Shown here: positions 39,192-58,923 of the stretch, piece by piece
Layout of the letters: the number at the start of each line of letters is the position of its first letter
Numbering within the stretch: position 1 is the first letter of the stretch
NCBI GenBank assembly: GCA_963706575.1
Contig: CAVPNL010000015.1
Coordinates: forward strand, 64,001-128,000
Reading direction: 5' to 3'
Length of the DNA: 64,000 nt
From: an uncultured delta proteobacterium
GTDB lineage: Bacteria; Desulfobacterota; Desulfobacteria; Desulfobacterales; JAHEIW01
Notes under the pieces: generated by a model
Told to the model about the DNA's origin: nothing
What the model saw: the letters and a program-made list of their open reading frames with translations, nothing else
Databases searched by the model: none
Program-made: the position numbers and the translations under genes

Positions 39192-39207
39192 TGGCATGCA
39201 TTTTGTT
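39192..39207 (+). promoter_or_regulatory. Putative sigma54 promoter (variant -12)
   Basis: TGGCAT-GCATT-TTGTT downstream of the three palindromes; -12 has GT rather than GC. Confidence 0.55.
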
Positions 39208-39220
39208 AATTAATTTATGA

Positions 39221-39384
39221 TAGTGCTGTGTCCCAGAAATATTGTCTAAAATATTACTAGGTACTGAGACGTGTTACCCATCCGTCATTCCCGCGCAGGC
39301 GGGAATCCAGGCGTCTTTGAACTGGACTCCCGCTTGGGCGGGAGTGATGATCATTTTGTAACTTATTTGTAGGACACAACACTA
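39221..39384. mobile_element. MITE family B copy 3
   Basis: TIR TAGTGCTGTGTCC / GGACACAACACTA; inverted copy of 15333-15496. Confidence 0.8.
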
Positions 39385-39437
39385 GTGGCAAAATTTAAAT
39401 TCTCTTTCCCCCTAATAAACGATTGATAGACTTATAA

Positions 39438-40745
39438 GTGATGAATCAGCAAGGCTCTCGTAAACGCTGGCGGCATTTGGTCATTGGCAACAGTGCGGCA
39501 GCCCTGAACGCGGTTAAAGCCATACGCGAAAACAATTCCACTGACCACATCACATTGGTTTCGGCCGAGAGTCATTATGCCTATTCACCGGTTCTGCTAC
39601 CCTACTATGTTTCCAAAAAAATCAAAAGATCAGCCCTGTTTCTGGCGGATGAAAGCTTTTATCAACAAAATGGGGTTGAGCTGATCCTTGGCAATCCGGC
39701 CACCCGGGTCGATCCGAAAAACCGGCAAGTGGCCCTCGCCAATGACGATGTTTTGGAATACGACAATTTGCTGATTGCAACGGGATCTTCTCCCAAACCG
39801 CTGGGCATACCGGGCGAAGAACTGGCGGGCGTATTCACCTTAAAAACCGTTGACGATGCCGATAAACTGGTCAAGGCCGCCGCTGGGATGGCGGACATTG
39901 TCATCATCGGGGGAGGTTTGATCGGTTTGCAGGCGGCAAACGCCTTATACGCGGCGGGCCGCAATATCAGGATTGTTATCGGCTCCAGACAACCGCTTTC
40001 GCGCAACGTGGACCCTTCCTGTGCTGAAAATGTCTGCCAGGGTATCCGCGAATGCGGGATGTCCATTTTATTTGAAACCCACGCCGTCTCCATTGGAAAA
40101 GCAAAAAACAAATTGAACGTCGAGTTGAGTTCAAATAATACACTCGAGGCCGACGCCGTTATTATCGGAAAGGGCGTCAGCGCCAATACGCAGCTCGTTG
40201 CCGAAAGTGAAATTGAAGTCAACTACGGCATCCTCGTTGATGAAACCATGCGCACCAATGTGCCGAATGTTTTTGCCGCCGGCGATGTCGCCGAGGGGTT
40301 AAATTTAATTACCGGGCAAAGACAGGTGATTGCCACCTGGCCGAATGCCTGTTCACAGGGCCGAACCGCCGGGATCAACATGGCGGGCGGTGTGGACAAA
40401 AACGAGGGCCTCAGCAGCAACATCTGCGGTTTTTTAGGAAGTACGGTTGCATCGGTGGGAATTACGAATCCTGAAAATGGTGATTTTGAAGAGGTGGTCT
40501 TCCAAGATCCGGCCAAAGGGCGGTATCGAAAACTGGTCTGGAATAAAAACGACGAACTGGTGGGTGCCGTCTTAATGGGCAAGGTCGCAGATATCGGGGT
40601 TATCACTAGCCTAATCAGGAACCGGGTCAAGGTCCCCAGAGAAAAGCGGGATCAAATGGCTCGATCGACCATAAAATATGGGGATTACTTCTCACAAAAG
40701 ACTGGTCGCTTGAATATCGCGGCAAGATGCCGCTCCCACAATTGA
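39438..40745 (+). CDS. FAD/NAD(P)-dependent oxidoreductase (AorC/NirB-N-like)
   Basis: IGNSAAA, YSPVLL, LLIATGS, GGGLIG and TNVPNVFAAGDVAE. Confidence 0.85.
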   Translation: MMNQQGSRKRWRHLVIGNSAAALNAVKAIRENNSTDHITLVSAESHYAYSPVLLPYYVSKKIKRSALFLADESFYQQNGVELILGNPATRVDPKNRQVALANDDVLEYDNLLIATGSSPKPLGIPGEELAGVFTLKTVDDADKLVKAAAGMADIVIIGGGLIGLQAANALYAAGRNIRIVIGSRQPLSRNVDPSCAENVCQGIRECGMSILFETHAVSIGKAKNKLNVELSSNNTLEADAVIIGKGVSANTQLVAESEIEVNYGILVDETMRTNVPNVFAAGDVAEGLNLITGQRQVIATWPNACSQGRTAGINMAGGVDKNEGLSSNICGFLGSTVASVGITNPENGDFEEVVFQDPAKGRYRKLVWNKNDELVGAVLMGKVADIGVITSLIRNRVKVPREKRDQMARSTIKYGDYFSQKTGRLNIAARCRSHN

Positions 40746-40835
40746 CAAGGCGATGTGTGGATCCCGCTAAACGGGAGAATAATTGCCGTGATCTACCATC
40801 TTTGAGATGGGTCTAATAAAAATGGGAAGTTTGAG

Positions 40836-41084
40836 ATGATCTCGATAACGGTTAAAATCCACCACGGCTTCAAAAAATTATTGCCGGCCGGTATGAAGAC
40901 GGGCGACCCTTTTGATATTTCCCTTGAGGACAATACGGCCGTCGGGGATTTGCTGCGGGACAAAATCAAACTTCCAGTGGATATGCCAAAATTAATTTTA
41001 ATAAATGGCCTGCACAGCAAAGAAAAGCAAGCTCTGAAAGATGGAGATAAAGTCAGTTTATTCATGCCGATGGCGGGGGGCTGA
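40836..41084 (+). CDS. MoaD/ThiS family sulfur carrier
   Basis: 82 aa; LING...LKDGD.V; C-terminal GG. Confidence 0.9.
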   Translation: MISITVKIHHGFKKLLPAGMKTGDPFDISLEDNTAVGDLLRDKIKLPVDMPKLILINGLHSKEKQALKDGDKVSLFMPMAGG

Positions 41085-41187
41085 GTGCAGATTTGTTCTC
41101 GGAACAACACCAGTCAGCTGTAGGCACGAATCGTAATAATCTCAACCTCGTATTAATTTTCATGCATATTTTAGAGTTAATTTTAGA

Positions 41188-41449
41188 TAGAAGTGGTTTC
41201 AAAACCTCAGATCAGGTTTCCCGCTTTAACGCGGGATTGCACATCTTTTTAAGCAAATTAAGGTGTGCATCAAGGCAAGGCGTCACGCGAATTGAAAGTC
41301 GTGTGTCCGAGCGTACACGTTAGTACGTGAGTATTTTAATTCGTGGGACAACGCAGCCATTGGACCTTTTGAGCCCCTTAACTAATCTTTCAATTAGATG
41401 CGAAATCCCGCTTCATTAAGCGGGGAGATGGGGTTTTGAAGCCGCTTCT
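41188..41449. mobile_element. MITE family A copy 4 (inverted, divergent)
   Basis: TAGAAGTGGTTTCAAAACCTCAGATCAGG ... GATGGGGTTTTGAAGCCGCTTCT. Confidence 0.75.
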
Positions 41450-41468
41450 TAAAGAAAGGAGTGTAACT

Positions 41469-41948
41469 ATGTCCAAGGCCCTTATCGTCAATCTGGATAA
41501 ATGCACGGGCTGCAGATATTGCGAATTGGCCTGCTCGTTCGCACATCACGGGGAATACAATCCCGCCAAATCCAATATTCAGGTCAGTGTTTTTACCGAA
41601 GATGCCTTCTATGTCCCCATGGTCTGTACCCAGTGCGACCGACCCTTCTGTGGTGAAGTTTGTCCAACCGGAGCCATCTCTGCCGATGAAGTCAACGGCG
41701 CTTATGTTGTCCTGGTGGATCCGGAAAAGTGTGTCGGGTGCAAGATGTGCACCATGGCCTGTCCGTTTGGCGCGATTACCTACCAGAGTTCGGGGAAGGT
41801 ACAAAAATGTGATTTGTGCGGCGGCAAACCCGAATGTGTGGCGTTTTGCGTCCCCAATGCGCTGGAATTTAAGGACCCGGAATTAACAAATGTCCGTAAA
41901 TCCAGGGCATACGCCAAAAAAATCTACCATCAGAAGGAGGAAGACTAA
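41469..41948 (+). CDS. 4x[4Fe-4S] subunit (AorA-like)
   Basis: CTGCRYCELAC, CTQC....CGEVCP, CVGCKMCTMACPFG and KCDLC. Confidence 0.92.
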   Translation: MSKALIVNLDKCTGCRYCELACSFAHHGEYNPAKSNIQVSVFTEDAFYVPMVCTQCDRPFCGEVCPTGAISADEVNGAYVVLVDPEKCVGCKMCTMACPFGAITYQSSGKVQKCDLCGGKPECVAFCVPNALEFKDPELTNVRKSRAYAKKIYHQKEED

Positions 41949-43789
41949 TGAATGCATGGGTGGGTAAGATTTTAAGAGTCAATTTAACGAAGGGGGCTAC
42001 ATCGGTTGAGGAACTAAACGAGGAATTTGCCCGTGATTATATCGGCGGACGGGGCTTGGGTGTCAAATACCTTTACGATGAGATCGATCCCAAAGTCGAT
42101 CCGTTGGATCCCGGTAATAAGCTCATCATGGTGACCGGCCCAATGACCGGCACGGGTGCCCTGGCGGGTGGCCGCTATACCGCTGTCACGAAATCCCCTT
42201 TAACCGGAGCGATAGCCAATTCGAATTCAGGAGGATATTTTGGTGCTGAATTGAAATATGCGGGTTACGACATGATCATATTGGAGGGCAAGGCCAAAAC
42301 GCCGGTTTATCTGTGGATCGAAAATGACAGCATCGAAATTCGCAAGGCCAAGCATCTCTGGGGCATGGAAACGCAGCAGACAACCGAAACAATTCTATCC
42401 GAAACGGATGTGGAAGCCAAAGTGGCCTGTATCGGACCGGCGGGTGAAAATCTGGTTAAATTTGCATGCATTATGAACGATAACGGCAGGGCCGCCGGAC
42501 GATCGGGTGTCGGAGCTGTGATGGGATCCAAGAATCTCAAAGCCGTGGCGGTCAGAGGGACCCAGGGCGTTACGGTGGCCGACCCTGAAGGTTTCAGAGC
42601 CGCCGTATTGGATGCCATCAAAGAGTTTCATGATCCGTATATGTCAGAAGTTCTGGCACAGTACGGCACTTCGGATGTGGTCGAGTTTTCAAACGAGGTT
42701 GGTCTGCTTCCCACCCGCAATTATCAGACCGGCGTATTTGAGGGGGCATCGAAGATCGGCGGTACGGTGATTGCGAAATACAATCTCAGAGGTGCCGCCA
42801 AAACCAAGGCCTGCTTCGGGTGCCCCCTGGCCTGCGGCCGGGTGACCCGTGTCGCGGATGGAGAATTTAAAGGCGCGGGCGAAGGGCCGGAATATGAAAC
42901 ATTGGGCGCCTTCGGCTCTGCCTGCGGGGTCGACAACCCCGAAGCCGTCATCAAAGCCAATTATATTTGCAACCGCATGGGCATGGATACAATTTCGACC
43001 GGTGTTACGATTGCCTGCGCTATGGAACTTTTTGAAAAGGGTTATTTACCTGAGAAAAAGGTGGGGCGCAAACTGGCTTTCGGTGATGGCCAGGCGGTGG
43101 TTGAATTAGTCGAAAAGGCCGCCCGGCGGGAGGGTTTTGGCAATGAGATCGCCGAAGGATCCTATCGGCTGGCAACAAAGTATGGCCATCCCGAGTTATC
43201 CATGTCCGCCAAGAAGCTGGAATTTCCCAGTTATGACCCCAGAGGCGGGCAGGGTTTTGCCCTGGCATATGCGACCTCAAACCGGGGCGGGTGTCACATC
43301 CGCAACGAAGTTCATTGTGTCGAATTTTTTGGCATCTCGCTGATGGGTATTGTCAAAACAGGTGATAATTTAGATCGCTTTAGCACCAAAGGCAAACCGG
43401 CGGTTGCCAAAAAGATTCAGGATTTTTATACGATGATCGACTCATCCGGAATCTGCAATTTTATCATCATTGGTTCACCGGATGCCAATGTCTTTATCAA
43501 TCTCATGGAAAAAGGGACAGGCTTAGATTTCGGCGGATTGAACGGTTTTCTGAAAACGGGCGAACGGATCTATAATATCGAAAGGCTTTTTAATCTCAAG
43601 GCCGGCCTGACGGCTAAAGATGACACCTTACCGAAGCGTATGTTAACAGAACCGATGCCCGAAGGTCCCGGCAAAGGCGAGGTGGTTCATTTAAGTGAGA
43701 TGCTGCCGGAGTATTACAAGCTTCGGGGGTGGACCGTAAAGGGGGTCCCCTCTGCAAAGAAGCTGGCGGAACTCGGAATCGCTACTTAA
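41948..43789 (+). CDS. aor: Tungsten aldehyde:ferredoxin oxidoreductase, canonical (AorB-like)
   Basis: KSPLTG, AAGRSGVG, CFGCPLAC, EGPEYET, GMDTIS, YDPRG and TSNRGGCH. Confidence 0.93.
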   Translation: MNAWVGKILRVNLTKGATSVEELNEEFARDYIGGRGLGVKYLYDEIDPKVDPLDPGNKLIMVTGPMTGTGALAGGRYTAVTKSPLTGAIANSNSGGYFGAELKYAGYDMIILEGKAKTPVYLWIENDSIEIRKAKHLWGMETQQTTETILSETDVEAKVACIGPAGENLVKFACIMNDNGRAAGRSGVGAVMGSKNLKAVAVRGTQGVTVADPEGFRAAVLDAIKEFHDPYMSEVLAQYGTSDVVEFSNEVGLLPTRNYQTGVFEGASKIGGTVIAKYNLRGAAKTKACFGCPLACGRVTRVADGEFKGAGEGPEYETLGAFGSACGVDNPEAVIKANYICNRMGMDTISTGVTIACAMELFEKGYLPEKKVGRKLAFGDGQAVVELVEKAARREGFGNEIAEGSYRLATKYGHPELSMSAKKLEFPSYDPRGGQGFALAYATSNRGGCHIRNEVHCVEFFGISLMGIVKTGDNLDRFSTKGKPAVAKKIQDFYTMIDSSGICNFIIIGSPDANVFINLMEKGTGLDFGGLNGFLKTGERIYNIERLFNLKAGLTAKDDTLPKRMLTEPMPEGPGKGEVVHLSEMLPEYYKLRGWTVKGVPSAKKLAELGIAT

Positions 43790-44041: not shown

Positions 44042-45280
44042 ATGAAAACTAAACGTTTTTTTATAATTGCTGGTTTAATGGTTTCAATTTTATTCAGCCT
44101 CCAGGCAATGGCGGCGGAACCGATTAAAGTGGGCGCACCCAATCCGCTTACTGGGGCCTACGCTTCTGACGGCAATGTGATGTTGAACGCGACGGAAATG
44201 GCCGTGGCCGATATTAATGCCAAGGGCGGGCTATTGGGGCGAAAACTCGAAGTTGTCTCTTTTGATGTCGAAGATATGCTGCCTGAAAAACTGATTTCGG
44301 CTGCAGAAGTCCTGGTCGTAAAGGAAAAAGTTGATATGGTCGTCACCGCCTGCAATGCCATGGGTCCGGACGTACAGGCTTTTGGCAAGTACGATGTCCC
44401 TTACATCAACAATAATGCCTCCACTGTTGCCACGGGAATGGTGAAAGATGATCCCGCTACCTATTTTAATGTCTTCCAGGCCGGTGATAACGAGCCGGCT
44501 TATGTTTCAAAAACCATCGAAACATTCATGGGCTTTGGTTACAAACTGCCCAACAAGAAGATGGCCGTGGTTTACAGTGAATACGATTGGGATAAAAAGA
44601 TCGCAGGGGCCTTAAAAGAACAGGCCAAGCAATACGGTCTCGATCTGGTCATATATGAACAGACGCCCGCCGCCACCAATGCCTGGGGCCCCATCCTGAC
44701 AAAAATTCGGGCCCATGACCCCGCTCTGGTATTTTTGAGCATCTACGCCCCTGAAAGCATTGCCGCTTTTGCAGATCAATACCTGCAAAACCCGACGAAT
44801 TCTCTGGTGGACCTGGGCTATGCCGTCTCCATCCCCTCATTTATGGAGATTGCCAGCAAATACGCCGATGGGTTTACCGGCTATGCGGCCCTGGCAATTC
44901 CACCCGAAATGACGGCAGAAGGTCAGGCCCTGGAAGCCAGATACAAAAAAATGTTTAAAACCGATTCCATGCCATTCAGCGTTGTACCCTGTGTATATGA
45001 CGGCGTAATGGCCTGGGCGGCAGCGGTTGAAAAGGTCGGTGATGTAAAAGATTACAAAGCCGTATCGGTCACCATGAAGACCAATCGCTATAAAGGCATC
45101 GGCGGGGTATACGACTTTAATAATCCGCGCCAGGCTGCCAGAGCTGGGGACGATCTGTTACCGGTCAATCTTTTTCAAGCCCAAAACGGCAAACTCGTGC
45201 TGCGCAACCTGGGTAGTAAGACAATATCGCCATATCAGCTGCCGCCTTGGTTAAAAGAACCGTGGCCAAAGGCTCAGTAA
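44042..45280 (+). CDS. ABC substrate-binding protein (LivJ/PBP1 type)
   Basis: Signal peptide; PLTGAYA.DG and DINAKGGLLGR. Confidence 0.9.
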   Translation: MKTKRFFIIAGLMVSILFSLQAMAAEPIKVGAPNPLTGAYASDGNVMLNATEMAVADINAKGGLLGRKLEVVSFDVEDMLPEKLISAAEVLVVKEKVDMVVTACNAMGPDVQAFGKYDVPYINNNASTVATGMVKDDPATYFNVFQAGDNEPAYVSKTIETFMGFGYKLPNKKMAVVYSEYDWDKKIAGALKEQAKQYGLDLVIYEQTPAATNAWGPILTKIRAHDPALVFLSIYAPESIAAFADQYLQNPTNSLVDLGYAVSIPSFMEIASKYADGFTGYAALAIPPEMTAEGQALEARYKKMFKTDSMPFSVVPCVYDGVMAWAAAVEKVGDVKDYKAVSVTMKTNRYKGIGGVYDFNNPRQAARAGDDLLPVNLFQAQNGKLVLRNLGSKTISPYQLPPWLKEPWPKAQ

Positions 45281-46044
45281 TGGCAAGCAGCGCGAATTTT
45301 AATCCCAAAGATGGACAGATGGGGGCGCAAGCCCCCATCCTTCAAGTCCGGAATCTCTCCAAGGCCTTTGGGGCCATGATGGCCGTCAACAATTTAAGCT
45401 TTGAGATTCCCGCCGGCGAAGTATTTGGTATTGCCGGACCCAATGGCGCCGGAAAAACGACGGTCTTCAACCTGATCACCGGGTTTTTACAGGGGACCGG
45501 CGAAGTGCGCTTCGAAGATAAAAATGTGACGAATCTCAAACCGTATCAGATTTGTCACCGGGGAATCGCACGGACGCTTCAAATTCCGCAGGTCTTCACA
45601 ACCCTTGATGTGTTTAACAATGTCAGATTTGGCGCCCATTTCGGCAACAAACGGCTAACGGATGGGAATGAAGCGGAAATTATCCACCGGGCCTTAGATT
45701 TCGTTGGATTGCAGGATGACAAAACAGCAATCGCCGAGAATATGGACCTGTTTCATAAGAAGCTGATTATGATCGCAGCGGCGCTTGCGACCCAGCCACG
45801 CTTATTGTTACTCGATGAGCCCATCGGCGGTCTGAGCCCGACGGAGATCGATCCGCTCATGGAACTCATCCGCAAGATCAACCAGGAATTGAACATCACC
45901 GTCATTATTATCGAGCATTTAATGAAGGTGCTTAAAAAGCTGTCGCATCGCCTGATGATCCTGCACTACGGGGAAGAGATTCGAACCGGACCCCCGGCGG
46001 AAGTCATGGAAGATGAAAAAGTAAAAGAAGTTTATCTGGGTTAG
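45280..46044 (+). CDS. ABC ATPase (LivG-like)
   Basis: GPNGAGKTT, LLDEP, IEH and EVYLG. Confidence 0.92.
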   Translation: MASSANFNPKDGQMGAQAPILQVRNLSKAFGAMMAVNNLSFEIPAGEVFGIAGPNGAGKTTVFNLITGFLQGTGEVRFEDKNVTNLKPYQICHRGIARTLQIPQVFTTLDVFNNVRFGAHFGNKRLTDGNEAEIIHRALDFVGLQDDKTAIAENMDLFHKKLIMIAAALATQPRLLLLDEPIGGLSPTEIDPLMELIRKINQELNITVIIIEHLMKVLKKLSHRLMILHYGEEIRTGPPAEVMEDEKVKEVYLG

Positions 46045-46054
46045 GAGAACCGTT

Positions 46055-46759
46055 TTGCTCGAATTAAAGCACATCAATACCTATTACGGCCAATTTCATG
46101 CCATCAGAGACGTTTCCTTTAAAATTAATCAAGGCGATTTATTCCTGGTTGTGGGGCCCAACGGGCATGGAAAGAGCACTTTGCTGAAAACGATATGCGG
46201 CTTGCTGCGGACGGCTTCAGGTCAAATCGTTTTTAACTCGACCGAAATTACCCGATTGGCGACGGATCAAATCGTGGCGATGGGCCTGGTTTATGTGGCC
46301 GAGGAACGCCATCTCTTTCCCCAGATGACCGTTCTCGACAACTTGAAGCTCGGTGCCTATAACATGCAGGCCCGGGCCAAAGAACGCGAAACCCTCGAAT
46401 ACGTCTTTCATTTATTTCCGCGTTTAAGCGAATTTCAAAATAGATATGCAGCAACCCTGAGTGGTGGTGAAGCAAGGATGTTAACCCTGGGCCGGGGCAT
46501 CATGTCCTGTGCCAAGCTGTTGGCGATCGATGAGCCGTCCTTTGGGTTAGCCCCCATTCTCAGAAATGACGTATTTGATAAGATCAATGAGATCAATTCC
46601 AATGGGTTGACCGTTCTTCTGGTAGAGCAAAACGTTAATCAGGTAGTGGACTTCGCTGACAGAATCTGCCTGATCGAAGACGGATGTATCGTCTTCGACG
46701 GCCCCAGAGAAGAAGCCCTGCTGAACGAACATGTTAAAAATGTATTTCTAGGTGGATAA
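46055..46759 (+). CDS. ABC ATPase (LivF-like)
   Basis: GPNGHGKST, LSGGE and DEPSFGLAP. Confidence 0.92.
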   Translation: MLELKHINTYYGQFHAIRDVSFKINQGDLFLVVGPNGHGKSTLLKTICGLLRTASGQIVFNSTEITRLATDQIVAMGLVYVAEERHLFPQMTVLDNLKLGAYNMQARAKERETLEYVFHLFPRLSEFQNRYAATLSGGEARMLTLGRGIMSCAKLLAIDEPSFGLAPILRNDVFDKINEINSNGLTVLLVEQNVNQVVDFADRICLIEDGCIVFDGPREEALLNEHVKNVFLGG

Positions 46760-46764
46760 TATAA

Positions 46765-47646: not shown

Positions 47647-47651
47647 GGGGA

Positions 47652-48665: not shown

Positions 48666-48794
48666 ACGATGGCGCCCTACCCTCCGCCTCTGGTGATGGC
48701 GAACAGGAGTTTAGGACCAGGGTGAATCATGGCGCAAAGAAAAGTTTAAGCAGTATTTCAACCTTTAAAACATTTGCAGAACAGGAGAAAATTT

Positions 48795-50429: not shown

Positions 50430-51816
50430 ATGGGAAAAATTTTTACCCGTTACGGTGACGGGACGCCCACTGAAATGAGCGAAAGTGAGCTCAGGGCGGA
50501 TCTGGAGGCCGGCACCGCGGACGCAGCGGATCGCGGCAAAATACCGCCGTTATCCGAAGATGAGCTAAACCATCTATTCGATATTTTTAGCTCCCCCTAT
50601 AAATTTATCAGCGTGGAGCCCGGGCAGGAAATCGTTTTGACCTATGATGGCGCTCACGTGAAAATGCGGCGCCACGGAATCAATGTCGAGCGAATTCAGG
50701 GCCTGCAGATTTATGAAAAGATCATGGGTGCCGACACATTGGAACTCTGTCATGTTGACTATAGTTTCAAACCCATCAAGCCCATGATTACCTTTGAACA
50801 GCCGGTCATGGAACAGGCCCTTTTGGTCACCCATGCACCGATGTTTTACGGCGCCATGCCCAATCTTGGCCTTTACTCCCAGCCGGACGGTCCCTTCCCA
50901 AATCCGTCCGAGCTGATGCCGGCCGGAAAAATCGAAGAGGCCCAGGAGTCCCATGAGAAATCCGTCGAAGCAGCGGTCAAAGATATCGTTTTTATCGGCT
51001 GCTGCATGATTGAATGCGGGGCCGACGGGATTAACATCGACTCGACGGGCGCGGCCGGCGATGCCGATTTTCTGGCGGCGCTGTTGGCCACCCAGCAGCT
51101 TGAAGGAAAAATACCCGGACACCTGCATTGAGATCGGTATGGCCGGTGAATTTATTCTGGGGATGCATGCCGGCTTGGAATTTGAAGGCACCCGGCTGGC
51201 CGGCCTTTACCCCCACGATCAGGTAAAGCTGGTCGAAAAAGCCGGTGGAACGATCTATGGCCCGGTGGTCAACACCAATACCACCCAGTCCACCCCCTGG
51301 AATGTCGCCCGGGTGGTTACGTTCACCAAGGCGGTTGGCGAAGTCGCCAAAATCCCCATTCATGCCAATATGGGCATGGGTGTCGGTGCCGTCCCCACCT
51401 GCGATCATCCCCCCATCGATACCGTCTCCAGGGCTTCCAAGGCCATGGTCGAAATTTGCCGATTGGACGGGTTGTAGGTGGGCGTCGGCGATCCCTTCGC
51501 CATGGCGCTTGCTCACGCACACGCTTCGGGCATGGGCGGAATGCGGACCTCCGGAGATCTGGTCGCCCGCATGCAAATGACCCGCGGCATGAAAATTCAA
51601 GAAGCCAAAGAGTATGTCGCCAATAAACTAAATTTATCGATTCCCGAAATAACCGACCCGGTCATTATGACCGAGGTCAGACAGGACCTGAAGCTGGGTT
51701 GCATGTCGCCCCAGGCCGGTGATGCTCACGGAATCGAGGCCAAGTTCCGAATTGCCGAGGTTCTGGGTATCGAGATCAATTGTGTCAACAAATTTAAAAA
51801 CAAAGTTGCGTTTTAA
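50430..51816 (+). CDS. mtbB: Pyrrolysine-containing dimethylamine:corrinoid methyltransferase family protein (in-frame TAG at 51475; +1 frameshift near 51100, likely an error)
   Basis: Three track ORFs join into ~461 aa with MtbB motifs DYSFKP.KP, YGAMPNLGLY..PDGP, GAAGD.D, GMAGE, MGMGVG and RASKAMVE..DGL-TAG-VGVGDP, matching methanogen DGI-O-IGVGDP. Confidence 0.93.
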
Positions 51817-51848
51817 TTATAAACCGCATCCTTAGAGGAGACAGGTTC

Positions 51849-52503
51849 ATGTTAGATGAAAAGATCATTGAAGAAGCAATGCAACTGATTATTCAACAGA
51901 ACAAGGAAGCGGCAGCCAAACTGGCCCAAAAGGTCATATCTGAAGGCGTCTCTCCCATTGAATTATTGAACGAAGGATTTATTCCCGGGATCAATAAGGT
52001 TGGCGATTTGTTCGGGCGCGGCGAGCTGTTTCTGCCGGAATTGATTAAAGCGGCCGATACCATGAAAACGGTTACCGATATCGTCAACGAAGCGATCGCA
52101 GATGGCCCGGACAAACCGGAGGCCCAGGCGAAGGTTGTTATCGCCACGGTCAAAGGTGATGTTCACGATATCGGCAAAGCGATCGTGGTCTCATTGATGC
52201 GAGCCAACGGATTTACCGTTTATGATCTGGGGCGCGATGTCGAAACGGATAAGATCATCGAAGAAGCGCAAAAAGGTGGATGCAGACATCATCGGCACCA
52301 GCGCCCTGCTGACGACCACCATGCCCAAGCAGAAAGAGCTTGAAGAAGCGCTCAAAAGCGCCGGCTTGAGGGATCGTTTTAAAACGGTGGTCGGCGGTGC
52401 CCCGGTGACCCCTCGCTGGGCGGCCCGGATCGGTGCCGATGCCTATGCCGAAGATGCTCAGGACGGTGTTTTGAAAGTAAAAGAGCTCCTCGCACAGTCG
52501 TAG
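51849..52503 (+). CDS. mtbC: Cognate corrinoid protein (MtbC-like; +1 frameshift in the A-run near 52272)
   Basis: FLPEL, GDVHDIGK B12 motif and DLGRDV; next frame SALLTTTM, VGGAPV and IGADAYAE. Confidence 0.88.
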
Positions 52504-52545
52504 GCGGCTACCGACTTTAAATCCTTGTTGACATTTATCGGATTC

Positions 52546-52582
52546 CATTGTCGGCGTGCCCATTACTGATGCGCCGACAATG
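52546..52582. other. Intergenic stem-loop between mtbC and aor
   Basis: CATTGTCGGCG ... CGCCGACAATG, 11 bp perfect stem with no U-tract. Confidence 0.5.
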
Positions 52583-52594
52583 ACAGGGGGAAAC

Positions 52595-54361
52595 ATGCAC
52601 GGATTTTACAACCGAATATTAAAAATCGATTTAAGTCAGAAGAATTTTTCAATCGAAGCCCTCGGCGATGAAATCCCGCAAAGCCTGCTGGGCGGCAAAG
52701 GATTGTGTTCGCATCTTTTATTCAATCTCAATCCTCCGGGAGTCGATCCATTATCCCCGGAAAACTGTTTGATATTTGCCACCGGACCCAGCGCGGGAAG
52801 CACCATCTGGGGGTCGTGCCGCTACGGGGTGTTTACCAAGTCGCCCCAGACCGGGTTTTATTCGGAATCTTATTCCGGTGGAACGGTACCAGAGGCCATC
52901 GACAGCACCGGCTTTGATGCCATTGTCATTCAGGGAAAATGTGCCGACCGCACCGTCCTGGCGATTCACCCGGATGGTGTTGATTTCCATGATGCCGGCG
53001 ATATCTGGGGAATGGAAACATACGCCGCCGAAGATGCCGTAATGGAACGTTTCGGCAAATCCGATGATCGTTATCGGCGAAAAGGCGCGGTGGTGATCGG
53101 ACCCGCCGGTGAAAAGCTGGTCTGCTTTGCAGTGATTGAAAACAACTATTGGCGTTCGGCGGGAAGAACCGGCGTCGGCACGGTCATGGGCGCCAAACAG
53201 ATCAAAGGCATTTTGTTTCAGGGCGATCAGAAACGCTCGCTTTATGATGAAAAAGCGGTGCGCGAATTTTCAAAGAATCTGTCGGCAGAAGCCAAAGACA
53301 GCCCGGCCACCAATGCCTATAAATCGCTGGGAACGCCTATGATGGTTAAACTGATAAACACCGCCGGTGCGTTTCCGACGCGTTACTGGTCGGAAGGCGT
53401 ATATCAAGATTGGGAAAAGATCAGCGCCGATGCCTTGAATGAAAGATGCGACGTCAAGCCGCATGCCTGTCTCAAGTGTTTTATGGCCTGCGGGCGCATG
53501 AGCACCATCAAGGAGGGTCGTCATAGCGGTCTTAAGATCGAGGGCCCGGAGTATGAAACCATTTATGCCTTCGGGGGACTGTGCCTGATCGACAGCATCG
53601 AGGAAATCGCATATCTCAATGATGTTTGCGATCGCTTAGGCGTCGATACGATCACGGCCGGCAATTTATGTGCCTTTACGATTGAAGCCGCCCGGCAGGG
53701 CCGCATCGATTATAAAATCGATTACGGAGAGGTGGACTCCATTGCGGAATTACTTCATAAAATCGCCTTTAGAGAAGACATTGGTGATATACTGGCCGGC
53801 GGAATCAAGCAGGCGGCGAAACAATGGCAACTGGAAGACATAGCGGTTCACGTCAAGGGTCTGGAGCCGGCGGGATATGATCCGCGCGCGCTCAAAGGAA
53901 TGGGTCTCAGCTACGCCACCTCGGATCGCGGCGCGTGTCATTTAAGAGCGACGTTTTATAAACCGGAAATCAGTGGTATGATCCCGCCGGAGCAAATTGA
54001 AGGCAAAGCCGAGCTTTTTTTGGACTTTGAGGATCGCTTAACCCTTTTCGATACGATGATTCTTTGCCGGTTTTATCGTGACTTTTACGACTGGGATCAG
54101 CTGGCAAAGATGATTTACGCGGTGACCGGCATCGATGAAGGCAAAGAAGGGCTGCAGCAAAGGGCCCGACAAATTGCCGACCTCATCCGGCGTTTCAACT
54201 TGCGGGAAGGATTAAAGCCCGAAGATGACCGGCTGCCGAAGGTCTTTCACCGCAAACTGGAAAATTCCGGGCAGGTCATTACGGAAGAAGAGCTCGAAAC
54301 CATGCTGCAGGATTATTACCGGCTGCATGGCTGGGATCAAAACGGTATCCCTGCCAGCTGA
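52595..54361 (+). CDS. aor: Tungsten aldehyde:ferredoxin oxidoreductase family protein
   Basis: KSPQTG, IGPAGE, AGRTGVG, CLKCFMAC, EGPEYET, YDPR and TSDRGACHLR. Confidence 0.92.
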   Translation: MHGFYNRILKIDLSQKNFSIEALGDEIPQSLLGGKGLCSHLLFNLNPPGVDPLSPENCLIFATGPSAGSTIWGSCRYGVFTKSPQTGFYSESYSGGTVPEAIDSTGFDAIVIQGKCADRTVLAIHPDGVDFHDAGDIWGMETYAAEDAVMERFGKSDDRYRRKGAVVIGPAGEKLVCFAVIENNYWRSAGRTGVGTVMGAKQIKGILFQGDQKRSLYDEKAVREFSKNLSAEAKDSPATNAYKSLGTPMMVKLINTAGAFPTRYWSEGVYQDWEKISADALNERCDVKPHACLKCFMACGRMSTIKEGRHSGLKIEGPEYETIYAFGGLCLIDSIEEIAYLNDVCDRLGVDTITAGNLCAFTIEAARQGRIDYKIDYGEVDSIAELLHKIAFREDIGDILAGGIKQAAKQWQLEDIAVHVKGLEPAGYDPRALKGMGLSYATSDRGACHLRATFYKPEISGMIPPEQIEGKAELFLDFEDRLTLFDTMILCRFYRDFYDWDQLAKMIYAVTGIDEGKEGLQQRARQIADLIRRFNLREGLKPEDDRLPKVFHRKLENSGQVITEEELETMLQDYYRLHGWDQNGIPAS

Positions 54362-54431
54362 AATCATCGCAAGAATTAAAAACTGCTTCGGATCAATGAC
54401 CAATTGCAATGTCGTCACCATTTGATTCTGC

Positions 54432-54505
54432 GGGGGGTGGATCGCAATGTGATCGTGTGGACTCTAAATCCACATAGGCGGGTGCAACTCCCGTACTCCC
54501 CGCCA
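54432..54505 (+). tRNA. pylT: tRNA-Pyl (anticodon CUA)
   Basis: Acceptor GGGGGGT/ACTCCCC, G discriminator and encoded CCA; D stem GATC/GATC; 6 bp anticodon stem TGTGGA/TCCACA with loop CT-CTA-AA; 3 nt variable loop; T arm GCGGG-TGCAACT-CCCGT; directly upstream of pylSc. Confidence 0.96.
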
Positions 54506-54557
54506 TTCAATTTTTATCAGGGTATAAATCCCTTATTCGGATCAAAAGAGGGTCTTG

Positions 54558-55400
54558 ATGGTTACATGGACAGAAACGCAACTGAGGCGCTTGCAGGAAC
54601 TGGATGTATCCGAGTCCGATTTGAATCAACACTTCGAAAATACTGATGACCGGGAAAACGCTTTTCAAGAGATCGAAAAAAAGCAAGCGCAAGAATTGCG
54701 CCAACGGCTGAAAACGTTTCGCGAAGTCGATTTCAGACCCGGACTGTGCAGGCTGGAAGCCAGATTGGCCGACACATTGATCAAACAGGGCTTCGTCCAG
54801 GTCACCACGCCGATCATGATGTCGAAAGGCCTGTTGCAAAAGATGTCTATCGATGCCAAACACCCGCTGAATTCACAGATATACTGGCTTGATAAGAATA
54901 AGTGTTTGCGCCCCATGCTGGCACCCCATCTGTATTATGTTCTGGTAGATTTGCTGCGCCTGTGGGACAAACCGGTCAAAATTTTTGAGGTCGGTCCCTG
55001 TTTTCGCAAGGAATCTCACGGTGCCCAGCATTCCAGTGAATTCACCATGCTCAATTTGGTCGAAATGGGGCTGCCCGCCGATCAACGCAAAGATAGGATA
55101 AAAGAGCTGGGGGCCCTGGTTTCAGAAGCAGCAGGCATTAGCGAATACCACTTTGAGAAGATAACCTCCGAAATTTATGGCGATACTATCGATATTGTGG
55201 CCGGAGAGGATCAGGTAGAGGTCGGTTCGGCTGCCATGGGTCCGCACCCGCTGGATCGTCCCTGGAAAATAACGGATACCTGGGTCGGAATCGGCTTTGG
55301 GCTTGAAAGGCTGCTGATGGTTGCACAAAACAGCAACAGTTTAGCAAAAATGGGCCGTAGCCTCACCTATTTAGACGGCATCCGGTTAAATATTCAATGA
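54558..55400 (+). CDS. pylSc: Pyrrolysyl-tRNA synthetase catalytic subunit
   Basis: TW..TQ..RL.EL, GFVQVTTP, LRPMLAP, FEVGPCFRKES.G..H..EFTMLNLVE, YGDT.D and GFGLERL. Confidence 0.96.
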   Translation: MVTWTETQLRRLQELDVSESDLNQHFENTDDRENAFQEIEKKQAQELRQRLKTFREVDFRPGLCRLEARLADTLIKQGFVQVTTPIMMSKGLLQKMSIDAKHPLNSQIYWLDKNKCLRPMLAPHLYYVLVDLLRLWDKPVKIFEVGPCFRKESHGAQHSSEFTMLNLVEMGLPADQRKDRIKELGALVSEAAGISEYHFEKITSEIYGDTIDIVAGEDQVEVGSAAMGPHPLDRPWKITDTWVGIGFGLERLLMVAQNSNSLAKMGRSLTYLDGIRLNIQ

Positions 55401-56524
55401 GACCTAAAGTGAACGTTAAGAACAACGGGCAACATTTTGAAGCCCTCCTCGTTAAATTAAAAGCGGAAGAAAATCTTTCAAAAGCCGAGATCAGGTTTCT
55501 GCTCAACCTTGACGATGGCGATAAGATCGATGCGCTTTTTCAAGAAGCCCGTGACAGACGCCAAAAGTATTTCGGCAACAAAGTCTTCATGTATGGATTC
55601 ATTTACGCCAGCACCTATTGCCGCAATGATTGCAGCTTTTGTCTTTTTCGCCGGTCGAATTCGCAAACGAAACGATACCGGAAATCAAAACAGGAAATTG
55701 TTGCAGCCGCCTTACGCCTGGCGGATTCCGGCGTTCATTTGATCGACCTGACCATGGGTGAAGATCCCGCCATTTTAAACGGCGGTGGGGCCGGTTTTGA
55801 ACAACTGGTTGATCTGGTCAGCACATTGCAAAAAGAGACGGGTCTTCCGATAATGGTTTCTCCTGGGGTGGTCCCCACACATGCCTTGCAACAATTGGCC
55901 GCAGCAGGTGCGGTCTGGTATGCCTGTTACCAGGAAACCCACAGCAATTCACTGTTTAACAAACTGCGGCCCGGCCAGGACTATCACAACCGCATGCAGA
56001 GCAAAGTTGACGCACACCATCTCGGTTTACTGGTCGAGGAAGGGCTGCTCTGCGGGGTCGGTGAAACCACAGATCATATAGCCCGATCGATCGACGCCAT
56101 GAAAAAATTGAGAGCGGATCAGGTGCGGGTGATGAACTTTGTGCCGCAGCCGGGTACGCCGATGGCAGGACAAGCGCCGCCGGATCCGCTGAGAGAGACA
56201 TTGATTGCTGCCGTCATGCGCCTCGTTTTTCCAGATAAGCTGATTCCGGCTTCATTGGACGTGGAAGGGATTGCCGGGTTAAAGCGCCGTTTGAATTCAG
56301 GTACAAATGTGGTCACATCCATCGTGCCCCCCGGTGAAGGTCTGGTTGGGGTGGCCCAGCATTCGTTGAATATTGAAGAAGGCGGACGTACAGCGGCGTC
56401 TGTGAAAAACGTGCTGAAGCGCCTCGGGCTGGAACCGGCCACCCGCCAAGAATACCAGAACTGGGTCCGTCGCCGCCAACAGGCCATCGCCAACAGCAGA
56501 AACAGCAGGGAGGTCGCGTGTTAG
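55397..56524 (+). CDS. pylB: Methylornithine synthase (radical SAM)
   Basis: FMYGFIY.STYCRNDCSFC, GVHLIDLTMGED, CYQETH, RVMNFVPQ.GTP and IPASLDVEG. Confidence 0.96.
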   Translation: MRPKVNVKNNGQHFEALLVKLKAEENLSKAEIRFLLNLDDGDKIDALFQEARDRRQKYFGNKVFMYGFIYASTYCRNDCSFCLFRRSNSQTKRYRKSKQEIVAAALRLADSGVHLIDLTMGEDPAILNGGGAGFEQLVDLVSTLQKETGLPIMVSPGVVPTHALQQLAAAGAVWYACYQETHSNSLFNKLRPGQDYHNRMQSKVDAHHLGLLVEEGLLCGVGETTDHIARSIDAMKKLRADQVRVMNFVPQPGTPMAGQAPPDPLRETLIAAVMRLVFPDKLIPASLDVEGIAGLKRRLNSGTNVVTSIVPPGEGLVGVAQHSLNIEEGGRTAASVKNVLKRLGLEPATRQEYQNWVRRRQQAIANSRNSREVAC

Positions 56525-57675
56525 TCGCCGTTGCCGGCGGAAATCTTCAGGGCGTAGAAACGGCGTACCTATCGCAAAAGGCGGGCTGGGACGTTCTCGT
56601 AATGGATCGCAAACCGATGGTACCGGCAACGGGGCTATGCGATACTTTTGTTCAGCTGGATATGACCTCAGAAAAAGATTTAGCGCAGGCCCTAAGTGGT
56701 GTTGATTTGGTCATTCCCGCGCTGGAGAACGATGCTGCCCTGGCCTGTTTAGGCCGGGTGACCCGCAACAATGGGATTCCATTTGCTTTTGATCCTGCCG
56801 CTTTTGCCATATCCTCCTCCAAAATACAATCTGAGCAGCTCTTTAAGCAAACCGGTGTCCCGACTCCCGCCCGTTGGCCAAAATGCAAATTCCCGGTCGT
56901 CGCCAAACCTGACCGGGGAAGCGGCAGCCAGGGCGTAACGGTATTTAATAATATTACCGATCTGCAGAACACCCTAAAACCACCAAACCCGCAATGGCTG
57001 ATACAGGAATTTATCCACGGGCCATCGTATTCTTTAGAAGTCATCGGATCGCCGGGTCACTATACCGTGCCCCAGGTCACCGATTTAGCAATCGATGCGC
57101 AATACGACTGCAAGCGTGTGACCGCACCATCAAGCCTGGCGGGTGAGCTGATCTTAAAATTTGAAGCGCTCTCGCTGGCGCTGGCGGATGCCTTAAACCT
57201 GAACGGCATAATGGATGTGGAAGTCATTTTGTCTGAAGATGAACTAAAGGTGATTGAAATTGATGCGCGCTTACCCAGCCAAACACCGACAACGGTTTAC
57301 TGGTCGACGGGTTTGAATATGGTCCAGTTATTGGGAGACTTTTTTTTAAACCGACAGACTCGCATTCAGCCGAATTCGACTAATGAATATGGCGTGATCT
57401 ATGAACACGTGAGGGTGGCATCAAATCATCTTGAAATTGCCGGCGAACACATCATGTCCGGAACGGATGCCCTTCACGTATACCCGGATTTTTTTGGCGC
57501 AGACGAGGCCATAACGAATTATGCTACGGGCCGCGACGATTGGGTCGCCACATTGATTGTTGTTGAAAAAAATGTGGAAGCCGCCTGGGACAAACGCAAT
57601 CAAATCATTGCGGATATTAAAAAAAGGTTTAAGCTGGAAATTTATCTGGATTCAGTCACGCAAGAAAAAACTTAG
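56518..57675 (+). CDS. pylC: 3-methylornithine--L-lysine ligase (ATP-grasp)
   Basis: GG.LQG.E..YL..KAG, GPSYSLEV, YDCKRV, GIMDVE, EIDARLPSQTP and GEHIM. Confidence 0.95.
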   Translation: MLVAVAGGNLQGVETAYLSQKAGWDVLVMDRKPMVPATGLCDTFVQLDMTSEKDLAQALSGVDLVIPALENDAALACLGRVTRNNGIPFAFDPAAFAISSSKIQSEQLFKQTGVPTPARWPKCKFPVVAKPDRGSGSQGVTVFNNITDLQNTLKPPNPQWLIQEFIHGPSYSLEVIGSPGHYTVPQVTDLAIDAQYDCKRVTAPSSLAGELILKFEALSLALADALNLNGIMDVEVILSEDELKVIEIDARLPSQTPTTVYWSTGLNMVQLLGDFFLNRQTRIQPNSTNEYGVIYEHVRVASNHLEIAGEHIMSGTDALHVYPDFFGADEAITNYATGRDDWVATLIVVEKNVEAAWDKRNQIIADIKKRFKLEIYLDSVTQEKT

Positions 57676-57685
57676 GAGACCACCT

Positions 57686-58537
57686 GTGACCCGACTGATA
57701 AGCGCTGACATCAGCGATATCGCCGCCAATTTGCAAAATTATGACAGGGAATTGGTGGCCAGAACGGGTTATTCCCTGAGCGGTATTGCCTGTCGTGCCG
57801 CTGAAATCGATGAAGCGCAGATCAAGAATTTACTGCCCGAAATTCGGGTGGGAGTCATACCGATCTCCAGCGGCGAAGGGATCATCGGCGGTTTCGGCGA
57901 TGCCGTTTTGAACATTCTTTTCCACATGGGTGCTAACGCCTTTGTAACCCGGACGACGGATGTCGCCGGAATTGTCGAATCCTATGAGAAAAAAGCAGAT
58001 ATGATAATGCTGGCCGATGATGAGCGCTTTGTGGCATTGCATATTCGAAGTCGCTCAATCGCTGACAATGCGGTTTGCACCGGCAACGCCTTTGCAACCG
58101 GATTGCGATTGATGGCCGGCAGCCTGAAAGGGCAAAAGGTGCTGGTCATCGGCTGTGGTCGGGTGGGGCGCAGCGTAACGGAGGCTTTGATCCTTATGGG
58201 TGCCCGGGTTTCAGTTTACGATGTTAAGATTGAACCGTTAAAGGAATGGGTCAAAACGGTAGATCAAACAGCTGATTCGAAGATTCAGATAGTCCAAAAA
58301 TTGGACTCCGCCTTGCAGCGTCACCAATTTATCATCGATGCTTCGCCGGCCCGCAACATTATCCATGCGCATCATATTACACCGGATACATATGTTAGCG
58401 CGCCCGGGGTTCCGTGCGGATTGGACGCCGAAGCAAAAGAGAGATTATCCAGTCGATTTTTGCACGATCCGCTTCAGCTAGGCGTCGCAACGATGCTGGT
58501 CAGTGCGGCCAAAGGCCACTGCGAGCGGCAACAATAA
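57686..58537 (+). CDS. pylD: 3-methylornithyl-N6-L-lysine dehydrogenase
   Basis: GTG start (TRL..D); G.GIIGGF, DVAG, ADD.RF, GCGRVG, APGVP.G and HDPLQLGVA.M. Confidence 0.93.
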   Translation: MTRLISADISDIAANLQNYDRELVARTGYSLSGIACRAAEIDEAQIKNLLPEIRVGVIPISSGEGIIGGFGDAVLNILFHMGANAFVTRTTDVAGIVESYEKKADMIMLADDERFVALHIRSRSIADNAVCTGNAFATGLRLMAGSLKGQKVLVIGCGRVGRSVTEALILMGARVSVYDVKIEPLKEWVKTVDQTADSKIQIVQKLDSALQRHQFIIDASPARNIIHAHHITPDTYVSAPGVPCGLDAEAKERLSSRFLHDPLQLGVATMLVSAAKGHCERQQ

Positions 58538-58560
58538 CAAAGAGATTCTCATCTATTTTT

Positions 58561-58923
58561 ATGCAAAATTCAGGTAAAAAAGCCGCGAAACGATTCTATC
58601 GCAAGCGCGTCGATCTTTTTCGGCTCATTGATAAAATAAAATTGTGGCCGTCGCGCAAAGGTATTTTGCATGGCATCCGGACCATTCAAAAGATAGGGGA
58701 CCAGGCCCAGATTACCACGCATTGTAACAAAACATTTCTGGCAAACGATTCCCGCAACAGCCGGGCCGCTCGCTGGTTAAGAAATAAATGGTTTAAGGAT
58801 GTCTGCCCGATCTGCCGGATTCCGGATTGGAAGCTGGAAAAATATTCATCAACCCAGTTCAAGCGCCATTACGGATCGGCTCTGCTGTCGGAGGATGAGT
58901 TGGATAAAAAAAACGGCGATTAA
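58561..58923 (+). CDS. pylSn: Pyrrolysyl-tRNA synthetase N-terminal (tRNA-binding) subunit
   Basis: KIKLWPSRKGILHGI, THC, SRNSRAARWLRNKW and C..CRIP.WKL.KY. Confidence 0.95.
   Translation: MQNSGKKAAKRFYRKRVDLFRLIDKIKLWPSRKGILHGIRTIQKIGDQAQITTHCNKTFLANDSRNSRAARWLRNKWFKDVCPICRIPDWKLEKYSSTQFKRHYGSALLSEDELDKKNGD

Follow-up and report, generated by a model that had tools for sequence, protein, structure and literature searches.

Why should the gene of a pyrrolysine-containing ‘dimethylamine’ methyltransferase lie between those of a 4-aminobutyrate (GABA) transaminase and an aldehyde oxidoreductase? The question is raised by a 64,000-nt stretch of contig CAVPNL010000015.1 (the window), from an uncultured Desulfobacterales metagenome-assembled genome (MAG), in which one same-strand run leads from an aldehyde:ferredoxin oxidoreductase (AOR) gene set through a LIV-type ABC transporter, gabT, mtbB, mtbC, and a second AOR gene (AOR2) to a pyrrolysine (Pyl) cassette. 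As far as we are aware, the proven uses of pyrrolysine are limited to three, and each concerns a simple methylamine (mono-, di-, or trimethylamine). Comparison with relatives suggests that the coupling of GabT and AOR with MtbB is conserved well beyond the genus, and this linkage looks new. We give an even chance to the reading that MtbB demethylates an N-methyl omega-amino acid, e.g., 4-methylaminobutyrate, to the substrate of GabT within one regulated catabolic locus.

The gene order that an earlier note on this DNA had described, from an FAD oxidoreductase through pylSn on one strand, was borne out in content and order by ARAGORN, Pfam, and NCBIfam (Table 1). The aminotransferase upstream of mtbB is predicted to be a bona fide GabT: GabT/PuuE-type and related aminotransferases make up its 13 best PDB matches, in a list headed by 4atp and then 3q8n, 4ffc, and 1sf2. 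A GabT of this type (at least 45% identity) is present once in the 5.67-Mb genome, and the next-best aminotransferase is 39.6% identical. The first four genes of the operon are predicted to encode an AorABC-type complex. This assignment follows from the whole-length PDB matches of the first AOR (9mqx_D, 687.9 bits; 1aor, 646.2 bits; 8c0z_A, 591 bits) and from the FAD protein, whose sole PDB match at E ≤ 1e-40 is 8c0z_E. AOR2 also matches 9mqx_D (374.3 bits), and its orthologs, 65–69% identical, adjoin GabT and/or MtbB in other lineages. For both AORs, the tungsten cofactor and the aldehyde substrate are assumed from the family. AOR-family genes number 17 in the whole genome, and the window contains four (at 12803, 20290, 41948, and 52556).

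The mtbB gene matches the 463-position PF09505 profile in two pieces, 50430–51131 to positions 5–234 (269.5 bits) and 51010–51816 to positions 228–463 (367.9 bits). Its in-frame TAG occupies the Pyl site of the family, CRLDGL-O-VGVGD, and the same site is found in 29 of the 30 MtbB open reading frames (ORFs) of relatives among those listed; in the exception, L029, the ORF call is off. A homologue in L070 (2160–3542) has no stop codon and reads CRLVGL-S-VGVGD, with Ser at the place of Pyl and V for the D of DGL. No PDB relative of MtbB was found by sequence. The pyl cassette is complete, with a tRNA-Pyl (CUA) and five proteins that all exceed their NCBIfam equivalog cut-offs and are all full length; PylSc and PylB are single copy in the genome.

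In the species collection, 577 relatives of MtbB were confirmed, and single-TAG MtbB-family genes occur in 19 of the 61 related genomes searched, with up to 12 per genome. We scored the neighbours within 10 kb for 108 distinct MtbB rows, counting GabT at ≥45% and AOR2 at ≥50% identity. GabT is found beside 19/60 rows of a 61-row Desulfobacterales clade (SH-aLRT 99) versus 2/47 outside it, both Spirochaetes; where both flanks extend over at least 5 kb, the figures become 6/20 and 2/14. AOR2-like genes accompany 7/60 clade rows versus 0/47 outside. The arrangement GabT-MtbB-MtbC-AOR2 is seen in two ‘Desulfobacterium’ MAGs, and other loci show MttB-MtbB-GabT-MtbB, AOR2 and GabT divergent from MtbB, or, in Spirochaetes, pyl cassette-MtbB-GabT. 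In L101, a non-Pyl MttB is followed by Pyl-MttB, Pyl-MtbB, a BCCT transporter, GabT, and MtbC, and a TRAP system is present too. Thus, the co-occurrence of gabT, liv, and aor genes with mtbB that the earlier note had pointed to holds for GabT and/or AOR2, which recur by MtbB in several Desulfobacterales lineages and two Spirochaetes. It does not extend to the LIV transporter and the AorCAB genes, which are confined to the genus except for one Dehalococcoidia locus with AorA-AorB-AorC directly before MtbB. The LIV transporter is present in the relatives G007 and G015 and absent in G005; transporters at other MtbB loci are of the BCCT, TRAP, or Pot-like ABC type. No literature describing a GabT/AOR link to MtbB was found within our coverage, which lies outside the subscription journals.

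How mtbB and mtbC relate to their neighbours is illustrated by loci of MtbB-less relatives. Of the six GabT loci examined there, those of G004, G012, and G053 have a LIV-type ABC transporter beside GabT; in G030, AOR2 comes after GabT, with a sigma-54 activator adjacent; and in G054, GabT is divergent from AOR2. We read GabT, AOR2, and the transporter as a putative self-standing module for GABA-type amino acids into which mtbB-mtbC has been set, because loci without MtbB keep GabT together with AOR2 or the LIV transporter. This cuts both ways, strengthening the partnership of GabT and AOR2, yet allowing that a mobile methyltransferase block landed there. Mobility is suggested by L050, where GabT-MtbB-MtbC-AOR2 and a third IS91-type gene lie inside 2484-nt inverted repeats (99%; 3194–5677 and 14590–17073) that carry integrase and IS91-type transposase genes, so that the module looks like a composite transposon. 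L049 and L050 have nothing in common except GabT-MtbB-MtbC-AOR2.

From this gene content, a pathway can be proposed. An N-methylated omega-amino compound would be imported, with 4-(methylamino)butyrate or a close homologue as the best candidate. This compound is the secondary-amine analogue of dimethylamine, with a carboxypropyl chain in place of one methyl group, and would arise as the final intermediate when a betaine, e.g., gamma-butyrobetaine, is stripped of its methyl groups. MtbB would transfer the N-methyl group to Co(I)-MtbC and thence to tetrahydrofolate via partner enzymes encoded elsewhere in the genome. The remaining primary amine, of the GABA type, would be transaminated by GabT, and the resulting semialdehyde (succinate semialdehyde) would be oxidized to the dicarboxylate by AOR2 and/or AorABC. 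Since transamination requires a primary amine and a single methyltransferase is encoded in the minimal module, an N-monomethyl omega-amino compound would be the simplest substrate; homologues one carbon longer or shorter are just as possible, as are methylated diamines. The methyl groups that a betaine would lose earlier may be taken off by the non-Pyl MttB paralogues nearby together with a Pyl-MttB encoded ~4 kb upstream of the window. Loci that combine Pyl-MttB, non-Pyl MttB, and BCCT fit such a stepwise betaine stripping, e.g., of gamma-butyrobetaine. More tentatively, and with somewhat less confidence than in the coupling itself, we suggest that one bacterial Pyl-MtbB clade may comprise N-methyl-omega-amino-acid methyltransferases which complete anaerobic betaine demethylation with the MttBs, while GabT and a tungsten AOR burn GABA to succinate. 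The earlier note had proposed that a larger N-methylated amine or amino acid is imported, demethylated, transaminated, and oxidized by an AOR. The identity of GabT, the recurrence of GabT and/or AOR2 beside MtbB, the separation of MtbB from archaeal enzymes, and the lack of a Pyl-MtmB in most MtbB-bearing relatives favour that scheme, whereas the linkage to LIV and AorCAB does not carry beyond the genus.

The same coupling could act on a methylated diamine or polyamine, e.g., N-methylputrescine, or on another N-methyl amine. A second aminotransferase and one AOR would then produce GABA, which GabT and the other AOR would take to succinate. We consider this improbable. The genus-level locus does hold two class-III aminotransferases (32908–34092 and 48774–50057) and two AORs, and genes for Pot-like ABC transporters (SBP_bac_8, TOBE_2 ATPase, BPD_transp_1) adjoin the methyltransferases in L062 and L047, with a TOBE_2 ATPase also in L081. 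However, the second aminotransferase falls below every NCBIfam equivalog cut-off, that of the putrescine aminotransferase model included, L101 has BCCT (the betaine, carnitine, choline family) and TRAP transporters instead, and the minimal module of L050 comprises GabT and only one AOR.

The element TGGCAT-N5-TTGT at 39192, called sigma54-type in the earlier note, departs from the consensus by two mismatches, the C of the -12 box being replaced by T, and sites with two mismatches occur in the window no more often than by chance (43 observed versus 36.9 expected). Nevertheless, the block TTGGCATG(C/T)ATTTTGTT is invariant in four genomes amid a diverged spacer, and three palindromes TGATGC-N6-GCATCA precede it at the same place in G007, G005, and G015, forming the only cluster of this motif in the 5.67-Mb genome. 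Moreover, a PAS-containing sigma-54 activator (29782–31521) is kept in the same position in these three relatives at 85–90% identity and is likely the activator of the operon. It would probably bind the palindromes and thereby drive the promoter. At the 3′ end of the operon, the pyl cassette would provide the reading of the mtbB UAG, and the co-orientation of the genes suggests that it may be induced together with the catabolic genes. Conditional expression would make sense given that TAG is still a stop, terminating 935 of 4089 long ORFs (22.9%) in the genome, including those of pylB, pylC, mtbC, and one transporter ATPase. A precedent is the substrate-dependent genetic code expansion of Acetohalobium arabaticum (Prat et al, 2012, as cited in the accessible part of PMC8318568). 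Scans of 39300–59200 for sigma-70 promoters and terminators returned 23 and 27 sites versus 22.9 and 25.8 expected and do not inform on transcript units.

The earlier note had listed mtbB, with its TAG, and mtbC as genes. Families and TAG hold, but each gene is broken into two frames by a 1-nt insertion, at ~51099 in mtbB and at ~52268–52274 in mtbC, which is split over 51849–52343 and 52222–52503. The two insertions are the only internal indels in 2074 aligned bases compared with three same-genus orthologs. The stretch was compared with contigs from four runs, three of DNA and one of RNA (X1, X2, X4, and X15); these contigs stem from relatives and not from the source sample, the best public run sharing only 0.46 of words and the X15 RNA contigs being ~90% identical. 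The base at ~51099 is absent in X1 (depth 3/3), X4 (52.9/52.9), and X15 (45.8/54.9), X2 having no coverage there, and the base at 52268/52270 is absent throughout X1, X2, and X4 and in part of X15. As far as these contigs show, both insertions are private to this record.

Both insertions are probably errors of the assembly consensus, or otherwise very recent mutations. We favour an error because the ratios of nonsynonymous to synonymous substitution (dN/dS) against the orthologs (mtbB, 0.07–0.08; mtbC, 0.09–0.14) resemble those of the neighbouring genes (0.06–0.10), nothing downstream of the shifts is further damaged, unrelated genes nearby are split as well, and the genome consists of few, long contigs (25 for 5.67 Mb), which we take to fit a long-read consensus. 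Same-genus genomes carry both genes intact. Within 84 kb, splits affect at least five more genes, suggesting a raised indel rate in the consensus: in the window, an acyl-CoA synthetase gene (15548–17219) and the M20 peptidase gene (31515–32817), whose halves share one frame in G005; in L005 (contig C15, 44001–64000), genes of a Glu/Leu/Phe/Val-type dehydrogenase (12662–13979), Pyl-MttB (14716–16213), and a class-V aminotransferase (16517–17714). The other possibility, that mtbB and mtbC are truly inactivated in this strain and the Pyl branch is decaying while the GabT/AOR operon is still used, seems rather unlikely to us. It would account for the fact that two neighbouring genes each carry an independent 1-nt insertion and that Pyl-mttB is split as well, for insertion sites outside long homopolymers (one at CAGCTTG, the other in an A5 run), and for the lack of the exact sequence in any run found. 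It is at odds with the full length of all pyl genes, the intact second mtbB on another contig, the low dN/dS and undamaged remainder of both genes, the unrelated split genes nearby, one of them intact in G005, and the long contigs. Programmed frameshifting was rejected, the two sites having no common motif and the orthologs being in frame. A genome-wide frameshift proxy based on overlaps between same-strand ORFs of differing frame (53 pairs/Mb versus 40/Mb at other loci) was dropped, as it failed to detect mtbB and mtbC but picked up the regular pylC/pylD overlap.

An alternative to a coupled pathway is that MtbB and MtbC are an ordinary dimethylamine system acting after Pyl-MttB on trimethylamine, with GabT, LIV, and AOR as an independent operon for GABA or other omega-amino acids, the two having become neighbours through mobile blocks or a shared amine-responsive sigma-54 activator. 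The MtbB tree and the methyltransferase complement bear on this. A set of 17 rows, supported at 99, unites two source-named archaeal MtbB fragments (Methanohalophilus and Ca. Methanohalarchaeum) with, among others, a Thermincola copy and a G005 copy located 8 kb from a Pyl-MtmB. The MtbB of the window lies outside this set, at a path distance of 1.8–1.9 from the archaeal fragments versus 0.9–1.0 for the G005 copy. In this quick tree with two archaeal fragments it therefore stands apart from the named dimethylamine enzymes, with which the earlier note had allowed that it might group. The archaeal-like copies (L007, L008, L023, L024, and L033) carry an insertion of ~7 residues (...GDQGNSGVGIP...) after position ~80 that the clade of the window lacks.

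As to partners, Pyl-mttB (in two frames) and the corrinoid gene mttC lie at contig positions 58740–60147, ~4 kb before the window start. The genome has 12 MttB-family matches, one with TAG, three MtmB homologues, none with TAG, as well as three RACo/RamA-type genes, one pterin-binding gene on the contig of the locus, and 10 URO-D-type genes. The earlier note saw no partner in the window, which is right for Pyl-mttB and mtmB, but two non-Pyl MttB genes are found inside (27639–29078 and 34581–36065); of the genes it named for a search of the rest of the genome, Pyl-mttB turned up upstream, mtmB as TAG-less homologues, and ramA as the three RamA-type genes. Across the 61 related genomes, 36 of 37 MtmB-family matches have no in-frame stop and are non-Pyl homologues; the one with TAG is the Pyl-MtmB of G005. 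In G007, which is 97% complete and has an intact operon, no MtmB-family match was found. A second, intact mtbB is located on contig C3 of the genome (G000; 351712–353073, or 9695–11101 of L004) with no adjacent corrinoid gene. This copy groups in the tree with Aminicenantes and Eubacteriales copies, and its neighbours are arylmalonate-decarboxylase/racemase-like, a creatinase-like M24 peptidase, and two 2-hydroxyacyl-CoA-dehydratase-like genes with an activator ATPase.

Several observations weigh against a coupled pathway. The scored rows are kin and derive from MAGs, so that the linkage counts overstate independence, and no GabT was seen beside 41/60 clade rows, or 14/20 of those with at least 5 kb flanks. 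Many MtbBs of the clade adjoin Pyl-MttB, as in the classical route from trimethylamine to dimethylamine; in L045, L062, and L101, Pyl-MttB is directly upstream of MtbB. The GabT type is present in 17/19 relatives with MtbB but also in 13/42 without it, where it can accompany LIV or AOR2, and its adjacency to MtbB could reflect a mobile Pyl/methyltransferase block that landed in a GABA operon. The intact G007 ortholog of MtbB scores 503.6 against the 369.1 cut-off of TIGR02368, the dimethylamine methyltransferase equivalog. The tree came from a quick search over 348 columns with only two archaeal rows, both N-terminal fragments of 350 residues. Promoter or terminator signals between or joining the operon genes do not exceed chance, and the RNA contigs, coming from relatives, cannot establish a single transcript. 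Finally, as the contigs compared stem from relatives, the frameshifts may be real; three of the ~7 split genes in 84 kb belong to the Pyl pathway.

An ordinary dimethylamine system would explain the equivalog score, the Pyl-MttB neighbours and the Pyl-mttB/mttC pair on the same contig, GabT loci without MtbB, and the mobile-element genes flanking the L050 module, and marine Deltaproteobacteria with Pyl enzymes for tri- and dimethylamine are already published (PMC8318568, in its accessible part). Nevertheless, we judge it doubtful. Chance insertion fails to explain recurrence in differing orders and lineages, in two different backgrounds mtbBC occupies precisely the place between GabT and AOR2, the four genes are the whole cargo between the inverted insertion-sequence copies, and GabT of this type is single copy in 5.67 Mb. 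The distance of the window MtbB from named archaeal enzymes also speaks against it. Moreover, with TAG in only one MtmB-family match of 37 and no MtmB-family match in G007, monomethylamine would be a dead end for dimethylamine degradation, albeit tolerable for a methyl-group harvester.

Table 1. Features of the locus, with positions in the window and supporting matches (bits versus cut-off where two values are given).
Feature	Position	Strand	Basis
MttB-superfamily methyltransferase, non-Pyl	27639..29078	-	PF06253 498.4 bits; no in-frame stop; upstream end of genus-conserved locus
Sigma-54 enhancer-binding protein with PAS	29782..31521	+	Sigma54_activat 221 bits, PAS, HTH_50
M20 peptidase gene, two frames in this assembly	31515..32817	+	Peptidase_M20 match of first ORF ends at profile position 104/206
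Second class-III aminotransferase	32908..34092	+	PF00202 239.6 bits; kept upstream in G007, G005, G015
MttB-family methyltransferase, non-Pyl	34581..36065	-	PF06253 314.7 bits; TIGR02369 535.3 vs 525
Palindromes TGATGC-N6-GCATCA, three	38978, 39045, 39100 (38978..39117)	.	Presumed activator sites
Sigma-54-type -24/-12 element TTGGCATGCATTTTGTT	39191..39207	+	Two mismatches to TGGCAC-N5-TTGCW
AorC-like FAD/NAD oxidoreductase subunit	39438..40745	+	Pyr_redox_2 193.4 bits; PDB 8c0z_E 168.7 bits
ThiS/MoaD-like small protein	40836..41084	+	PF02597 25.6 vs 22.5; orthologs 80–83% identical
AorA-like poly-ferredoxin (Fe-S) subunit	41436..41948	+	Fer4 families; orthologs 94–97% identical
AorB-type aldehyde:ferredoxin oxidoreductase	41948..43789	+	AFOR_N and AFOR_C at full length
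LIV-type ABC transporter, five genes	44042..48665	+	Peripla_BP_6, ABC_tran, BPD_transp_2
LIV binding protein	44042..45280	+	
LIV ATPases	45247..46044, 46055..46759	+	
LIV permeases	46765..47646, 47637..48665	+	
gabT, 4-aminobutyrate--2-oxoglutarate transaminase type (class III)	48774..50057	+	TIGR00700 570.7 vs 506.65
Conserved ORF, 101 aa	50085..50390	+	78–88% identical in four same-genus loci
mtbB, Pyl-type methyltransferase gene	50430..51816	+	PF09505 in two pieces; TAG at 51475–51477
mtbC, corrinoid protein gene	51849..52503	+	B12-binding_2 and B12-binding, spread over two frames
AOR2, stand-alone second AOR	52556..54361	+	AFOR_N and AFOR_C full length; likely start ATG at 52595
pylT, tRNA-Pyl (CUA; anticodon CTA)	54432..54505	+	ARAGORN; sole tRNA in window
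pylSc	54555..55400	+	TIGR02367 328.7 vs 178.15
pylB	55397..56524	+	TIGR03910 485.9 vs 348.2
pylC	56518..57675	+	TIGR03909 427 vs 248.3
pylD	57686..58537	+	TIGR03911 252.9 vs 150.05, residues 45–316 of ORF 57557–58537; start inferred from match begin
pylSn	58561..58923	+	TIGR03912 124.7 vs 51.15, residues 64–152 of ORF 58414–58923; start inferred, Met before match

The arrangement from the activator to pylSn is kept whole in the same-genus genomes G007 and G015 and partly in G005 and G014, and by this comparison the predicted genus-conserved unit spans ~27.6 kb to 58.9 kb. At its upstream end, the first MttB has a 95% identical copy in G005 that adjoins the same activator. The second MttB reads GAGYNDSK where Pyl-MttBs have G-O-G/A-DSK, and its orthologs in G007, G005, and G015 (87–90% identical) adjoin aorC, directly divergent from the operon. 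In the window, a GntR/FCD regulator, an opine-dehydrogenase-family gene, and a short binding-protein-like ORF (36603–38700) stand between this MttB gene and the promoter, an insert that is absent from the orthologous spacers. On contig C4 of G005 (L038/L039), a variant of the operon lacks the LIV transporter, mtbC, and a detectable pylB, and its AOR2 is separated from pylSc by ~1.9 kb of other sequence. The 101-aa ORF belongs to no Pfam or NCBIfam family, and its Atlas matches are all <0.9.

Public metagenome contigs accumulate at two hairpin-rich intergenic elements (39260–39350 and 41187–41420; depth bins 74–750 versus ~5–40 nearby), and many contig joints and loose ends fall within them; both elements are probably REP-like dispersed repeats. 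The first, between the sigma-54-type promoter and aorC, is seen in this genome only. At the start of the window (707–7440), a glycyl-radical enzyme, whose best model is choline TMA-lyase (732.9 bits versus a cut-off of 1050), is encoded together with its activase and two dehydrogenases, one an Fe-alcohol dehydrogenase and the other of the Ldh_2 family. Glycyl-radical enzyme or microcompartment genes are also near MtbB-GabT in L081 and L047. The genome of the host comprises 25 contigs, its nearest public records are uncultured Desulfobacterales MAGs, and among the relatives is a contig of the Olavius delta-1 symbiont with tandem MtbB copies. A marine or estuarine Desulfobacterales bacterium is the best explanation for this host.

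If the coupled pathway is true, with MtbB of this locus a pyrrolysine enzyme would, for the first time, act on a substrate beyond mono-, di-, and trimethylamine, which would widen the reason for keeping the 22nd amino acid, and GabT-MtbB-MtbC-AOR2 would be a portable four-gene module spreading the trait. It would also alter the supply of methylated nitrogen to methanogens and provide candidate enzymes that destroy trimethylamine precursors without forming trimethylamine. Further, it would fill a gap, giving sulfate-reducing sediments a route that finishes the demethylation, as known corrinoid systems take one methyl group of a betaine and excrete the rest (PMC8604678, in its accessible part).

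The comparison with known systems delineates what is shared and what differs. MtbB and MtbC resemble those of Methanosarcinales (PF09505, TIGR02368) in the full-length match, the UAG at DGL-O-(V/I)G, and the adjacent B12-binding corrinoid protein. In contrast to these, the window MtbB belongs to a separate bacterial clade, a Pyl-MtmB partner was not found in most relatives, the genes lie between GabT and AOR, and the record is frameshifted. With the Pyl-MttB/MtbB loci of marine Deltaproteobacteria and Olavius delta-1, the locus has the lineage and the gene families in common, and Pyl-MtbB in this Desulfobacterales group is already published (PMC8318568, accessible part). The coupling to GabT and AOR does not appear in that portion of the account, where ‘aminotransferase’ and ‘aldehyde’ have zero occurrences. 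Acetohalobium arabaticum, as cited there, likewise ties its pyl cassette to a methylamine catabolic cluster while TAG is still a stop; unlike there, the cassette here sits at the 3′ end of a sigma-54-type operon with predicted co-transcription. Members of the non-Pyl MttB superfamily (MtgB, MtcB, MtpB, MtyB, and MthB of Eubacterium limosum and Desulfitobacterium) carry out corrinoid-dependent demethylation of larger N-methyl compounds, and two paralogues are present in this locus. E. limosum converts gamma-butyrobetaine to 4-dimethylaminobutyrate, removing one methyl group and excreting the product, the enzymes of later steps being undescribed in the accessible part of PMC8604678. Here, by contrast, Pyl enzymes with GabT and AOR would continue to the carbon skeleton. 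The AorABC complex of Aromatoleum aromaticum (PDB 8c0z) is paralleled by the joint occurrence of AorB-like (591 bits), AorC-like FAD, Fe-S, and MoaD-like genes, whereas AorB of this locus matches 9mqx_D best (687.9 bits) and AOR2 is a divergent stand-alone paralogue. Finally, as in the GabT/GabD GABA shunt, a GabT equivalog would be followed by semialdehyde oxidation, except that a ferredoxin-type AOR would replace the NAD(P)-dependent semialdehyde dehydrogenase, as the adjacency of GabT and AOR2 in G030, G054, and this locus suggests.

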